Shown here: positions 46,701-58,700 of the stretch, in pieces
Layout: every line of letters starts with the position of its first letter
Position numbering within the stretch: the stretch's first letter is position 1
Assembly (NCBI RefSeq): GCF_003019035.1
Contig: NZ_CP027448.1
Strand: one strand, 5' to 3'
From: Escherichia coli
GTDB taxonomy: Bacteria; Pseudomonadota; Gammaproteobacteria; Enterobacterales; Enterobacteriaceae
Length of the DNA: 64,000 nucleotides
Made by a program: the position numbers

Positions 46701-49700
46701 CCAGAAAAATGGCTGCGCTACGTCATTGAACATATCCAGGACTGGCCGGCAAACCGGGTACGCGATCTGTTGCCCTGGAAAGTTGATCTGAGCTCTCAGT
46801 AAATATCAATACGGTTCTGGTGAGCCGCTTACCCACAGATAGATTTAAATATCACGCCTTTTCATGGAGGAGGACTGAAAGGACAAAATGTTGTGAATAT
46901 GTGTTTTTATGATGGTTACAGTACTAACAGTAGTCATCTGCAACTTCGGTTTTATGATGATGATGGTTCTGGTTCCAGGACTGATTTATTCAAACTTACA
47001 AGCGCTGATGGCATTGGGAAGTTGCCTTATAAGGTCAGTCTGGCTTTCGGAGAAGGGGCTGCGAAAACGATTATAAATAATCGTACTCTTGTAATCGAAG
47101 GAGGCAATATTCCTGTTAACTGGGCGCGAATCCTACCGGTTTCTTTGCCTGATATTCCGATTCCTGTATTATGTTGGCCTGCAACACTGATACTAAATGC
47201 AAACTTGCCTGTCAGCCAACCCGCTAATGATTATACCGGACGACTTATAGTGGCATTTACACCAGACTCGGCTTCTTTATAGTTTCATATGTCTTATACA
47301 GGAATCCCTGTTGGGGGTTCCTGTATTTGTAAGCATTTTGTTGTTACTTGTGCTAGGCAAACTGCGGATGGATGTGTTGTTCTGTATTCAGTGCGAAATA
47401 ATGAAGGTAAACGAATAATATCGCCATTGATATCGGCAACACCTCTAACATTTGTAAGTGATGAGATGGTCTTCCCCCTCCTTCACGGCAGCCTTCAATT
47501 GCGCCATGAAGGATAAACTTTAACCACAAAAATAAGAGGGATACCATGTCTGAACAGAAAATCACCGGCATCGAGCTGGCTAAAACGAACTTTTATCTTT
47601 TCAGTATCAATGCTCATGGCAACCCCGCAGGAAAGGCCAAACTTTCTCGCAATCAACTGCTTAACTGGCTGGTGCAACAGCCTAAAATGACTGTTGCTAT
47701 GGAGGCTTGCGGGGCATCCCATTACTGGGTCCGGGAAATCAGGAAACTCGACCATGACGTAATATTGCTTCCGGCACAACATGTTAAAGCTTATCAGCGG
47801 CGTCAGAAAAATGATTATAACGACGCACAGGCAATAGCTGAGGCCTGCCAACATGGAACTATACGACCCGTACCAATAAAAAATCTGGAGCAACAGGACG
47901 TCCAGACTTTTTTGAAAATGCGCCGGTTGGTTTCGATGGAAAGGACACAACTGATAAATCACGTTCGTGGACTTCTTGCTGAATACGGCATTGTGTTCAG
48001 TAAAGGTGCAACAGAACTACGCCAAAAATTACCGGCACTACTTGAGGATGCGGAAAACGAACTCACTGATACCATGAGGACGTTATTGCATCGGCAGTAT
48101 ATACGGCTGATTACACTGGATAATGAATTGGAGTGGTATGATTCTGAACAGAAAAAATGTCCGGCAGGATCCTGTGTGCAAACGGTTGTTAGCTATTCCA
48201 GGATTCGGCCCCCTGGTTAGTCAGGCAATAAAAAGCTGGATGGGGGATGGAAAACAGTTTAGACGAGGAAGGGATGCATCTGCAGCTCTGGGGCTGGTTC
48301 CCCGACAGTTCAGCACGGGGGAAAGCAGGTTCTTCTGGGCATAACAAAATGTGGAGATCAATATATCAGATCTATGCTGATACACGGTGCCAGAGCGGTA
48401 TTGTTCAGAGCCTCAGAGAAAACTGATTCACTTAGTATGTGGGTTAATCGTATTCGGGAAAAGCGTGGCTTCAACCGGGCAGTTGTTGCTCTTGCAAATA
48501 AACTCCTTCGGATCGCCTGGATAATTATCGCCCGCAATGAGATGTATTTGCCTGCAATTTAAGCCAGATGTAATCTGACAGATACCTGTATAAATAACCG
48601 GTAACTGTCAGATCAGGTCTGAGCTAATACAGGTATGGCAGAACGTGACGTATTTGTACGGTGAATCCGGGGACATTTTGTGGAAGGTTTCCCGGAAATA
48701 GACCATGCAGGAGGAATGACCGGCGATAAAGTCTGCAAATACGGACTGATAAGGGTGATTATTGGCTCTGGCGACGGCTTTTAGAACTTCTTTCACCATT
48801 CTGGTGTGGACTTTCTGGTGCTCCAGGTTGTGTGACATGGGAACTCATTCTGGATGGTTACTCTGAAAGCTCATATTCTGCTACACCCCGATTTGCATCT
48901 GCCAAACTGTCGTGGTTTTGACGAGCCGCTTACGTAAATAATTGCTGTTAACAAACAGATTTAATGTTTCATCATTTTTATTATGTCGCCACTCTGTCCG
49001 CTCTGATACCCCTACTCACTATCATTGCTGGTGAGTCTTGGACTAACTCAAATAACTATTACGGGATATGGGGAGTGACAGCAAATGCTGTATTTTCTCT
49101 TGGTTCCTCACTTTATATTAAGTTTGTCAGCAATTTTCGCTCTTCATAAAAACGTACTGTCTGGTATTGGATGAATGTGAAGCATACCAGAGAGGAACTA
49201 TAAAAATATACATCAGTCATTCCATCCTGTTCTGTCTGTAAAGTCCTAATTATTTCTGAACTGTACTGGTGATAAAGCTTGGTGTTTGTTGTTTTTATAA
49301 CTAATTGAAATTACTTGGATAATGTTAAATAATCTTAAATAATTTTTCATCTGACTCTTTGTGCTTTAGGTTGGTTTTATCCAACGTCTTGGGTGTGCGA
49401 TATGCCGACATGTTATGTATTGCGATCTCCCTTTAATATTTATTGGATAGATGTTTATTGTGTCTTTGCATTATTGCCTGTGCATGTACAGGCAATGGCC
49501 GCGGTTGCAGATGAATTTCATGTGTTATTTTAGTTTGTCGCGTCGCACAAAGAGGGGTGGGGTGAAATGCGTCTTGGAATAATAATGCAGCTGTTGATTG
49601 TGCTCTTTTTTATGCGGGATGGATGGGGGGCGGAGCGAATAATATTTTCTGTAGATGTTGTGTCTTCAGCTTGTCATGTGGTGGTGGATGCGGACAGCAC

Positions 49701-55700: not shown

Positions 55701-58700
55701 CTCTGTTACTGATGAATCAGAATTTTGGCAATGGCATGAATGCGGTGGATAACGGACAGGTTATAAGTCAGGGGGTACTGGCTGACGGTCGGGTGATGAA
55801 TCTGGCTGCGGCCTATGCTTCAGCGGTATCGGATTTTGAACTGCGGTTGCCAGCAGAGGGTACACCTGCAGTATGGCAGGCGGGGCTGAATGTGACGGTT
55901 ACGGTACAGTGATGGTTGCAGGGATATAAGGAGAGAAGAGAAATGAAAAAGGTGACGTTGTTTCTGTTTGCTGCCAGCCTCCTGCCTTCCTGTGTACTGG
56001 CCTGGAACACGCCGGGAGAAGATTTCAGCGGAGAGCTTAATCTGGAAGGGGCAGTGACCAGCACCCATAATCCGTGGGTGTGGAAAGTCGGACAGGGAAA
56101 TGAAGGCCTGGAGGTTAAACAGAGCCGCGGTGTTCGTGACGGTGAGCAGGCAATTCCGGTCGCACTGCCGGCGATGACCGTTTTACTGGGAAAAACCACC
56201 CTGACCACACCGGCAGGACGTGAGGGGCTTTCTCCCCGTGTCAGTTACGGAAAGGGTACTGAGGGATTTTCGCTTGAATGGACAGCACCAGGCGTGGCGG
56301 AGGTGACGCTGCCTGTCACCGGAGATAATAATGCCCGGGCAGGAAAATTTGTTTTCAGAATGCAGGTAACGGGAGGGTTGCGCTATGTGCAGAACGGACA
56401 GCCCATATATGCCGGCGTATATGACGACCTGAATGCGAATGGTCTGCCAGGTGAAAGTACGATGATGAAGACTTCTGAGACTCCGGGTGTTCTGCAGAAT
56501 ATGTTCAGTGATGAGGGACCGTCATGGCTACACACAATGACAGTGACAACTTCCGTAGGAGTGAGTCACTTCAGCGATGCTTCTTTGCGTCAGGTTGAAG
56601 GTGTATATGGCGCACAGACAGTAGCAGGTAGTGGAGAATTATGCCTGAATGGGACACCGCCTGTGCACTGGCGAGTGTCATTGCCTGTGAGTATTGAGTA
56701 TCAGTGATTTATTTGTACAACGCTTGTTACTTAATGGAGTAACGACGAATCACTTAATAACTCATTTTTGTAACGAGCTCATGGACGACTGGTGGTGATA
56801 ATCATACCGGATCTGGTTAACCTATCCAGTATAAGAGGGACGAATAAAGTAACGGGGAGGGGGATTGAATTTGTTCATGTGTGTGATGTTCAATTCATCC
56901 TTTTCTGTTATCAAGCCAGTCCATAATTACTGTCAAATAGAACGGACGGGGCAAGTATTCATTGTTATTTTATCTGCTCTGACAAGAGTAAGGCTAAATG
57001 TTGCAAACCAGACTGACACTGAGATGTGATATTAAAATATTTGAATATAATGAGGGGTAAATGGAAACGGATATTGATGAGCGAATTAGTGAGTTTCTGG
57101 AAAATCAGAAAAAACATTTCAGTAAAACACTCTTTAGTACCCGTGAAATAGCCGATGCTGTCGGGCTAACGATATATCAGGCCAGAGGATGTCTGGAAGT
57201 TTCACCGTCCTTATCTGTACAGGAGCAATACTGTCCGGCAGCGTGCTCAGGCTGTCCTGGAACATTACCAGTTTGCACGGACACAGCCGGAACCGGTAAG
57301 GCGTTATCTGCAGGTTTATCGGGAGACTCCGCTGGTCACTACAGAAGGGCGTGGCGGAGAACAGCTATCTGTAACCTGTACCCCTTGTGGGTTTGACCGT
57401 GAAGGCGAACTGATGCTGGTTCTGTATTGTGACGGTACGCCTGTTATCCGGATATCGTTTTCATTCATTCGCTGGCGGGGAAGTTTCACTTTGTTTATTG
57501 GTGGCTTGCAGGGGCCTCGGGAATACGGGGCACATACAATTCGTCACACCACTCGCGTTTGTCACGGCCTCTTTCCGCGCAGGGTGCTGTGTGAGGCCGT
57601 TGCTGCGCTGGCGGAGGTGTGCCGGCTGTATACCATCACTGCGGTCAGTGAAGAGCAGCATGTTTTGCGACACGGTAGGTATGCGGCGCGTAAACAGGGG
57701 CGGTTTGTGGCGCATTATAGTGAGTGTTGGATATCTGTAGGAGGACAACACGATGGCAACGGTTTTTACCAATTGCCAGTGCCTTTACCACGTAAAGGTT
57801 CGGAAGATATCCCAGTCCGCAAGCGGGCGGAATACCGCAGACGGAATGCGCTGCTGGACAGTATCCGTTTAGGTGTCAGGGCTGCTATGGGCATTCAGTG
57901 AGTGCAGAACCGAATAGCAAAGCGCCTAAAGACTACAATGTTCATTGATGTTTAACTCAATGAACAGGTTGCGATAATTGCCAGACTGATTTACTGCATA
58001 ACATGCAGGCATAATATTGCTGGGATATATGTTTGGAACTATAGAAAAAATCAAAACGGGTGATGATGTTCTGTCTGCCGTTATTCACCGTGTTGAATGG
58101 CTGTTTGATACATTCTCTTCTGTCTGCCTGTCTTTTTCCGGAGGAAAAGATTCCACAGTGCTTTTCCATCTTGTGGCTGATGTGGCCCGCAGGAAGAACC
58201 GTCGTTTCTCTGTATTGTTCATTGACTGGGAAGCCCAGTATCAGTGCACCATTGAACATATTCAGAAAATGCGGGAAATGTACCGGGATGTGACGGATAC
58301 CTTTTACTGGGTGGCACTTCCCCTGACCACGGTTAACGGTGTCTCGCAGTTTCAGCCGGAATGGATATGCTGGGAACCCGGTGTGACATGGGTTCGCCAG
58401 CCACCGGAAGAAGCTATTACTGATATGGAGTATTTCCCCTTTTATCAGTATGCCATGACATTTGAAGAATTTGTTCCCGCATTTTCTTCCTGGTTTGCCA
58501 GTAACAGGTGTGGAGTGGCAGTGCTGACCGGTGTCCGAGCAGATGAATCCCTCAACCGCTTTATGGGACTGGTGTCCCAGCGCAAACTGAGATATGCCGA
58601 TGATAAACCCTGGACTACGGCATCGCCTGAAGGGTTTTACTACACCATGTATCCGTTGTATGACTGGAAAGCCCGCGATATATGGATATATAACGCCAGG

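Follow-up and report, generated by a model that had tools for sequence, protein, structure and literature searches.

What controls a K88-like fimbrial operon that has none of the customary regulators at its head? The question arises from a 64 kb stretch of Escherichia coli DNA (RefSeq assembly GCF_003019035.1, contig NZ_CP027448.1; hereafter the window, in whose positions all coordinates are given), which holds such an operon at 49567-56707, carried by an IncF-type virulence plasmid. We found that the operon is without a Pap-type switch (PapB, an intact PapI/FaeA and a GATC pair are all missing) and that a pair of genes resembling the Yersinia regulators psaE and psaF, overlooked in the initial annotation of this DNA, lies intact 4 kb downstream. 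The best overall explanation, to which we give a probability of roughly 0.55, is that this is a PsaE/PsaF-associated regulatory subtype of K88-like operon within an island eroded by insertion sequences (IS).

The seven-gene fimbrial operon

The operon is made up of seven co-oriented, unbroken genes, as defined by an open reading frame (ORF) map of 45-60 kb and by profile searches (Table 1), and is almost certainly a kappa-class (K88/F4-type) chaperone-usher system with all seven genes intact. Pfam and NCBIfam profiles, together with the ORF map, bore out the K88/F4-like kappa gene order that the initial annotation had claimed: a PapD-like chaperone stands among K88-family subunits (three Fimbrial_K88, one DUF5462) in the order C-D-E-F-G-H-I. 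The usher matched the NCBIfam PefC/AfrB family usher equivalog NF011760 with 1215 bits (cut-off 752), the runner-up family scoring 189 bits. The faeC-like protein had no significant match in the Pfam copy used; it is 93.7% identical to relatives, counted from residue 23 on, and 75.7% identical to a protein from L017 (compared loci are cited by number), whose record carries PF27684, K88_fimbrial_pA.

The major subunit showed remote similarity to the FaeG structure 2j6g in PDB (E = 5.7e-6) and, with its Fimbrial_K88 match (7.5e-60), proved related to FaeG, though remotely, when the comparison suggested in the initial annotation was made. It belongs to a broad continuum of "F4 family fimbrial subunit" proteins in Escherichia and Salmonella and is 30-75% identical to relatives, against 66-98% for the window's six other proteins; the subunit in the FaeG position is presumably the receptor-binding, antigenic component.

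Megablast placed the whole 8.5 kb stretch in plasmid p3RM8082, from a cattle E. coli, at 99.7% identity and in p35A2a at 99.2%, and across three plasmids of different origin none of the seven genes is interrupted, their identity being 98-100%. The NCBI annotation of the 99.7% identical plasmid p3RM8082 already names faeD, faeE, faeF, faeH and faeI, and a faeH-faeI probe matched 143 plasmids at at least 80% identity; this family of operons is thus common and has been annotated before, and the operon of the window is an unremarkable member. Like the F4 (K88) fae operon of porcine enterotoxigenic E. coli (ETEC), it has the order faeC-D-E-F-G-H-I, a PefC/AfrB/FaeD-family usher, a PapD-like chaperone, three Fimbrial_K88-family subunits and a DUF5462 FaeF-like protein. 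Unlike fae (faeA/faeB, faeC-J), it has no faeJ, no FaeB/PapB, no functional FaeA/PapI and no GATC pair, its faeC-like signal peptide and leader differ, and its major subunit is remote from FaeG. It thus falls outside the reference F4 operon proper, which is set apart by faeJ, the FaeA/FaeB regulators and FaeG itself. A tblastn search with the FaeJ of a relative found no faeJ in the window and had matches only in L002, L005, L007 and L009.

The operon lacks a Pap-type switch

We defined a Pap-type switch by PapB and PapI homologues with two GATC sites ~102 bp apart upstream. A tblastn search of the whole window with the PapB-like protein of a relative detected no PapB-like sequence (best E = 3.3, chance matches), so hidden PapB fragments were rejected as well. 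This agrees with the absence of PapB/PapI-type regulators upstream reported in the initial annotation, and no intact regulator pair was found upstream on closer search. The AT-rich leader with one GATC described there was likewise seen: the region 49150-49566 has 36.5% GC and a single GATC at 49424. Because its composition predicts about 1.3 such sites, a single one is nothing unusual by itself; with a single GATC in 1 kb of leader and no PapB, the elements of a Pap-type Dam/Lrp switch are nevertheless not there.

Such elements do occur in relatives. In the PapB-linked loci L002 (pSCU-478-1) and L005, a PapB-like gene lies 8 bp upstream of the faeC-like gene. L002 also has faeJ after faeI, and upstream of its PapB-like gene two GATC sites stand 103 bp apart, in the contexts CGATCTTTT and AAAGATCG, which is a Pap-type Dam/Lrp layout. 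Other plasmid K88-like operons carry PapB, and some PapI too.

The initial annotation saw no FaeA/PapI equivalent. None exists upstream, as it stated, but an N-terminal remnant is found downstream, in another module (Table 1). The Pfam FaeA match at 57061-57396 scored 26 bits (cut-off 20.7) and covers residues 22-46 only, the helix-turn-helix core. The FaeA/PapI-family gene is cut off after about 46 codons and is followed by the 3' part of a DUF535/VirK-like gene (57062-57901). Intact homologues of 69-71 amino acids elsewhere head a deacetylase/GT4/DUF535 module; when intact, this polysaccharide deacetylase module resembles the ecf lipopolysaccharide-modification operon of enterohaemorrhagic E. 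coli plasmids. We rejected the remnant as a lost regulator of the operon, since it spans only those residues and its module is unrelated to fae; it is the truncated first gene of that module.

Could the missing regulators be the work of the IS110-family element upstream? The initial annotation proposed that its insertion had rewired control, and in this account an ancestral FaeA/FaeB (PapI/PapB-type) region was lost to the insertion, with the element or its junction now driving or rewiring expression. The element and another repeat do lie less than 1 kb upstream of the operon, many operons of 88-95% identity have a PapB-like gene directly upstream, and homology to PapB-bearing operons stops at ~49654, within the faeC-like gene. 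However, rewiring by IS110 is not supported, because relatives without the element also lack PapB: the absence is a lineage feature common to L006-L008, L010-L012 and L017-L019, which do not have the IS of the window. In IS-free relatives a divergent class-5 fimbrial operon, and no regulator pair, precedes the faeC-like gene. The window and IS-free L017 have the faeC-like signal peptide and the leader motif in common, the DNA between IS110 and the leader is a class-5 usher remnant and not papB/papI, the window contains no PapB fragment, and the IS110 end is ~960 bp upstream of the faeC-like start. We consider loss through IS110 very improbable.

PsaE/PsaF-like genes beside K88-like operons

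The downstream pair has the features of a co-component system: an OmpR/ToxR-type winged-helix domain, full-length homology to PsaE and an overlapping PsaF-family gene downstream (overlap 61180-61235). Its PsaE-like protein is 36% identical to Yersinia pseudotuberculosis PsaE at full length, over 198 amino acids (E = 1e-32), and its PsaF-like protein 31% identical to Yersinia PsaF (E = 1e-21). The PsaE-like protein has a hydrophobic stretch, IYIPVYRYCLCGIYVLLMVFSVFLFLY, and a short tail whose C-terminal Cys pair (FCDKYSCEYQ) aligns with ICDQSECKQQ of the Yersinia protein. PsaE and PsaF of Yersinia reside in the inner membrane, and the psa fimbrial operon needs them for its transcription (PMC9820224); both have been placed among the ToxR/ToxS-like "co-component" cassettes (PMC9214523). 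In p3RM8082, psaE/psaF is annotated as a single fused product of 333 amino acids, which suggests a frameshift there.

We then asked how often such a pair accompanies a K88-like operon. A tblastn search with the PsaE-like protein matched 21 of 72,556 plasmids, 18 of them from Escherichia and one being the Yersinia psa locus itself; the PsaF-like protein retrieved the identical plasmid set, and neither protein matched a Salmonella plasmid. A K88-like operon lay 1-4 kb from the PsaE-like gene in all 11 Escherichia plasmids inspected, which stand for ~8 PsaE lineages at 37-60% identity (L001, L004, L006-L013), with the pair downstream or upstream and in either orientation. The IS-free contigs L017-L019 showed the linkage likewise. 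The assembly proteins of PsaE/PsaF-linked operons are 75-98% identical to those of the window, save one FaeF at 66%. A word-indexed protein search with the PsaE-like protein gave 7 clusters, too few for a census, and served to fetch contexts only. The chances that the PsaE/PsaF-like proteins regulate the operon are about even.

Alternatively, other factors may control the operon, while the pair may serve something else, for instance the lost class-5 operon. Such factors could be the global nucleoid proteins H-NS or Lrp acting on the leader, or other plasmid regulators, namely the AraC-family gene at 29835-30569 or the IbrA/IbrB-like pair at 58017-59884. The GC content of the leader, 36%, is typical of H-NS-silenced DNA; Lrp activates the related Klf fimbriae (PMC5560535); the phosphoadenosine phosphosulphate (PAPS)-reductase-like and ParB-like pair comes after the K88-like operons of the window, Shigella boydii L003 and L015; and the PsaE/PsaF pair of L017-L019 abuts a class-5 operon. 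However, pairs also adjoin K88-like operons on plasmids that have no class-5 operon (L006-L013), and the IbrA/IbrB-like genes are part of a distinct FaeA-like/deacetylase/DUF535 module, which elsewhere stands beside unrelated genes. We regard control by such other factors as distinctly unlikely.

Direct repeats in the leader

The full leader sequence was found elsewhere only in the two sister plasmids p3RM8082 and p35A2a (blastn in distant mode with 48924-49660 against 72,556 plasmids and 5,426 E. coli genomes). With most relatives, homology sets in abruptly at ~49654, right after the faeC-like signal peptide, and the 730 bp upstream are unique to the two sister plasmids. Tracing the leader by DNA similarity therefore failed; a shared motif came only from local blastn with word size 7 and a pattern search, and a MAFFT alignment of the leaders was too ambiguous to read outside it. 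The motif is a 10-bp direct repeat with the unit TTAAATAATN, present in every PsaE/PsaF-linked leader (these are otherwise too diverged for blastn) and not found upstream of PapB-linked operons. The window and p3RM8082 have two copies, TTAAATAATC TTAAATAATT; the p35A2a leader has three units and L010 two; L006, L007 and L012 read TTAAATAATG followed by TTTTATAATT or CTTTATAATT; L008 has TTAAATAATT TTTCATAATT, and L017 TTGAATAATG ATAAATAATT. A relaxed form of the motif has a background of 0.07 per kb across all fetched DNA, and a search of both strands of the window gave TTAAATAAT 3 times, two of these being the leader copies. Between leaders that are 97% identical, unit number differs (two in the window, 49324-49343, and three in L004, 9726-9755), which suggests that slippage adds and removes units.

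Direct 10-bp repeats are typical binding sites of winged-helix proteins of the OmpR/ToxR family. The units also overlap promoter-like hexamers (TTGAAA, a 17 bp spacer and AATAAT; 10/12 positions match), and promoter-like matches were obtained at 49305-49333 and 49316-49343. We treat the repeats as a candidate promoter element or PsaE-like binding site, or both. The Yersinia psaF-psaA spacer bears a loose resemblance to the repeat, a lead only. An Rfam scan of 48500-57500 at E <= 1 gave no match.

By eye, we also observed an upstream ORF of ~44 codons (49452-49584) that overlaps the faeC-like start codon in a different frame and, near it, a 9-bp perfect inverted repeat, ATTGCCTGT-N6-ACAGGCAAT, at ~49464-49487.

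Structured spacers around the major-subunit gene

The strong hairpin that the initial annotation placed after the major-subunit gene was confirmed at 54937-54966, and a second one was found at 54901-54928. The 227-nt spacer containing them folds with z = -5.55, and none of 200 shuffles folded as well; the spacer upstream of the gene is also highly structured (Table 1). Both hairpins recur in the consensus fold of 8 relatives, 3 of 24 pairs showing compensatory changes. The hairpin at 54937-54966 has a 13-bp stem followed on the plus strand by AUAUACGG; no U-tract follows it on that strand, a T-run being present on the minus strand only. It does not have the make-up of an intrinsic (Rho-independent) terminator and is not a canonical one. 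In known systems, papA mRNA has a protective 3' structure and the CFA/I operon undergoes differential mRNA decay (PMC5927463). By analogy, the hairpins most likely act in selective stabilisation of the major-subunit mRNA, possibly with partial termination, and the stoichiometry-setting attenuation suggested in the initial annotation is a plausible role.

Insertion elements and the history of the locus

On the IS-free contigs L017-L019, whose PsaE-like protein is 79% identical to that of the window, FaeA-like/deacetylase/GT4 genes, PsaE-PsaF, an intact, convergent class-5 operon and a divergent K88-like operon stand in that order. The left flank of the window is 96% identical to the L017 junction of PsaF end and CfaE end, and the faeC-like N-terminus is homologous to that of L017 (MRLGAILIML...), which argues that the window is an IS-eroded derivative of such a locus. 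We read it as a composite adhesin island in which the class-5 operon was destroyed and the K88-like operon spared. The psaF-like remnant at 47343-47453, a tblastn match to PsaF-like residues 137-174, is contiguous with L017 PsaF at 96% identity; this second psaF-like 3' end implies either two former PsaE/PsaF loci or an IS-mediated rearrangement within one. The usher remnant at 48936-49230 shows usher motifs in translation, interrupted by stops and frameshifts; a plus-strand ORF at 48964-49149 was rejected as a gene, being antisense within it.

The IS110 element noted upstream in the initial annotation is indeed there (DEDD_Tnp_IS110, 6e-15), with a broken transposase split over three frames (47546-48220, 48123-48344 and 48374-48562; 224, 73 and 62 amino acids). 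Neither copy has an intact DEDD transposase, the second comprising just 397 nt. The first 397 nt of the element (47454-47850) and 59924-60320 form an inverted repeat, I1, of 99% complementarity. The 12 kb segment between them (47851-59923), with the fimbrial operon and four downstream genes, is flipped relative to both sister plasmids; the flip places the PsaE/PsaF pair downstream and convergent, where it was upstream and co-oriented before. We rejected an IS history shared with L007, as the IS110 of the window has no similarity to the ISEc20 of L007. The repeat at 48630-48923 has matches of 90-95% in over 1,000 plasmids of Escherichia, Shigella and Salmonella, frequently as multiple copies, and is probably part of an unrecognised mobile element.

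Erosion on this scale raises the possibility that the operon is a silent relic, structurally intact and not usefully expressed, its promoter and regulator link damaged. Around it lie the class-5 remnants, the truncated psaF, the FaeA-like/DUF535 fusion, degenerate IS110 and IS66 and the 12 kb inversion; in the leader, CATCTG replaces the TATAAT/CATAAT of relatives and ~170 extra nt precede the start codon; and the fused psaE/psaF product of p3RM8082 hints at a frameshift. Against these stand seven open genes at 98-100% identity in three plasmids from different sources, PsaE-like and PsaF-like genes that are intact in the window, and alternative -10-like AATAAT hexamers within the repeats, 17 bp from a TTGAAA -35 (10/12 positions). 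A silent relic thus seems unlikely to us.

Elsewhere in the window, overlapping genes for a PAPS-reductase-like (DUF3440) and a ParB-N-domain protein (58017-59884) look like IbrA/IbrB-type co-activators; such a pair is again found behind K88-like operons in S. boydii and on other plasmids. What remains of the window resembles a virulence plasmid of the Shiga toxin-producing E. coli (STEC) type: in 7867-10080, 20892-25609, 35339-39238 and 42505-43887 lie genes for a KatP-like catalase-peroxidase, for an AIDA-type autotransporter and a TibC-like heptosyltransferase, for an S6 (SPATE) protease and for GGDEF and EAL proteins.

Table 1. Features of the fimbrial locus, in window positions
Feature	Position	Strand	Evidence or remark
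Class-5 (CfaE/CblD-type) tip-adhesin gene, 3' remnant	46833-47282	+	Pfam CblD 2.5e-19; 96% to CfaE_2nd gene end of IS-free L017
Second psaF-like gene, 3' remnant (110 nt), abutting outer end of IS110	47343-47453	-	85-93% direct repeat with 60695-60801
IS110-family element, degenerate transposase	47454 to ~48600 (right end approximate)	+	DEDD_Tnp_IS110 6e-15
Widespread plasmid repeat with 76-aa hypothetical ORF (48608-48838)	48630-48923	-	294 bp
Class-5 (TcfC/CooC-type) usher gene, decayed 5' remnant	48936-49230	-	73% DNA identity to L017 usher codons ~41-143
AT-rich leader of K88-like operon	49231-49566	+	GC 0.36; sole GATC at 49424
Two tandem 10-bp direct repeats, TTAAATAATC and TTAAATAATT	49324-49343	+	In leader; overlap predicted -10 hexamers
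faeC-like minor (tip) subunit	49567-50109	+	ORF; signal peptide lineage-specific
Usher (FaeD-like), outer membrane	50124-52568 (50166, NCBI start in sister plasmid)	+	Pfam Usher 8.7e-95, PapC_N, PapC_C
Chaperone (FaeE-like), periplasmic	52561-53352	+	PapD_N 5e-31; faeE in sister-plasmid annotation
faeF-like minor subunit	53387-53878	+	DUF5462 4.4e-66; annotated faeF
Spacer upstream of major-subunit gene, highly structured	53879-54116	+	z = -5.27; 0/200 shuffles fold as well
Major subunit/adhesin, FaeG position, hypervariable	54117-54887	+	Fimbrial_K88 7.5e-60
Two conserved hairpins after major-subunit stop codon	54901-54928, 54937-54966	+	Fold z = -5.55
faeH-like minor subunit	55115-55912	+	Fimbrial_K88 2.2e-77
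faeI-like minor subunit, last operon gene	55943-56707	+	Fimbrial_K88 4e-75
FaeA/PapI-family N-terminal remnant	57062 to ~57210	+	Fused by deletion to 3' part of DUF535/VirK-like gene (to 57901)
Partial inverted copy of IS110 5' end	59924-60320	-	Second arm of 12-kb invertible segment
psaF-like gene	60696-61235, probable start 61208	-	Pfam PsaF 3.2e-17; overlaps psaE-like end
psaE-like gene, predicted ToxR-type membrane-tethered winged-helix regulator	61180-61836, probable Met start 61776	-	Trans_reg_C 3.2e-13

Discussion

We propose that the operon belongs to a regulatory subtype found in a minority of plasmid K88-like operons, in which a conserved AT-rich promoter with the 10-bp direct repeats TTAAATAATN (49324-49343) would drive transcription. 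The linked PsaE/PsaF-type co-component system (60696-61836, minus strand) would act in trans on this leader promoter, with the PsaE-like protein as a membrane-tethered ToxR/OmpR-family winged-helix activator whose periplasmic tail pairs with the PsaF-like protein; together they would make fimbrial expression answer to a cue from the envelope or the environment, as Yersinia psa/myf does. The hairpins, as a 3' stabiliser and/or partial transcription stop, would let the major-subunit mRNA exceed that of the downstream minor subunits. In this reading, IS elements destroyed the divergent class-5 operon, truncated the second psaF and inverted 12 kb, and did not create the regulatory architecture.

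Several observations weigh against this proposal. Regulation by PsaE/PsaF is inferred through guilt by association; the pair in the window is 4 kb from the operon, with unrelated genes and an IS fragment between, and in L017-L019 it also neighbours a class-5 fimbrial operon, which makes its target there ambiguous. Only ~13% of plasmid K88-like operons carry the pair (18/143). Because the repeat overlaps predicted -10 hexamers it may be core promoter and not an activator site, and its conservation could come from common descent. The window reads CATCTG where L006-L008 have TATAAT or CATAAT, so its promoter may be weakened, and its leader has ~170 extra nt ahead of the start codon. Covariation in the hairpins is modest (3/24 pairs).

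More broadly, and tentatively, the regulatory module of these operons may be interchangeable, most using a PapB/PapI/Dam-Lrp switch and a minority PsaE/PsaF through TTAAATAATN repeats, whose 1-3 copies would tune expression. The Klf fimbriae of Salmonella Infantis pESI offer a precedent for regulator swapping at the edge of the cluster, as most klf homologues have no PapB-type KlfB (PMC5560535). Like the operon studied here, klf is K88-like and lies on a plasmid, and its assembly genes are conserved and its G subunit very diverse; unlike that operon, Klf is under KlfB (AfaA/PapB-type), KlfL and Lrp (PMC5560535). KlfK/KlfA were not detectable as homologues of the pair in the window, in keeping with the lack of Salmonella plasmids among the PsaE/PsaF-like tblastn matches.

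The closest counterpart of the pair is Yersinia psaEFABC/myfEFABC (pH 6 antigen), with which it shares domain order, a C-terminal Cys pair in alignment, overlapping genes and a neighbouring chaperone-usher operon. Unlike psaABC, which has three genes and a single subunit, the fimbria of the window is a seven-gene, kappa-class K88 type, and unlike the Yersinia genes, the pair may stand on either side of the operon and point either way, and is not directly ahead of a pilin gene. ToxR/ToxS, VtrA/VtrC and TcpP/TcpH join a membrane-tethered winged-helix regulator to a small periplasmic partner, in mobile, fast-evolving two-gene cassettes beside virulence genes (PMC9214523). A similar make-up is predicted for the pairs described here; their PsaE-like proteins are 37-60% identical across plasmids, against 75-98% for fimbrial assembly genes. 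That survey of co-component systems mentions neither plasmids nor K88 nor fimbriae (PMC9214523), and the literature we searched contained no link of PsaE/PsaF-type regulators to K88-like fimbriae. What is new is the pairing of a known kind of fimbria with PsaE/PsaF-like regulators, the genes being already labelled singly in public records.

If correct, this would extend PsaE/PsaF-type control for the first time beyond the psa/myf pH 6 antigen systems, and for the first time to a multi-subunit kappa fimbria. It would provide a second, genetically tractable E. coli setting for the poorly understood PsaE/PsaF mechanism and would illustrate the modular swapping of regulatory cassettes among fimbrial classes. 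K88-like fimbriae are host-range and colonisation determinants that are spreading on IncF virulence plasmids of STEC, ETEC, Escherichia albertii and Shigella. If a ToxR-like sensor replaces the stochastic Pap-type switch, the adhesin would be expressed in response to a signal in the gut (pH, temperature or bile, for example); such control would bear on the site and timing of colonisation, and standard in vitro conditions may miss adhesins of this kind.

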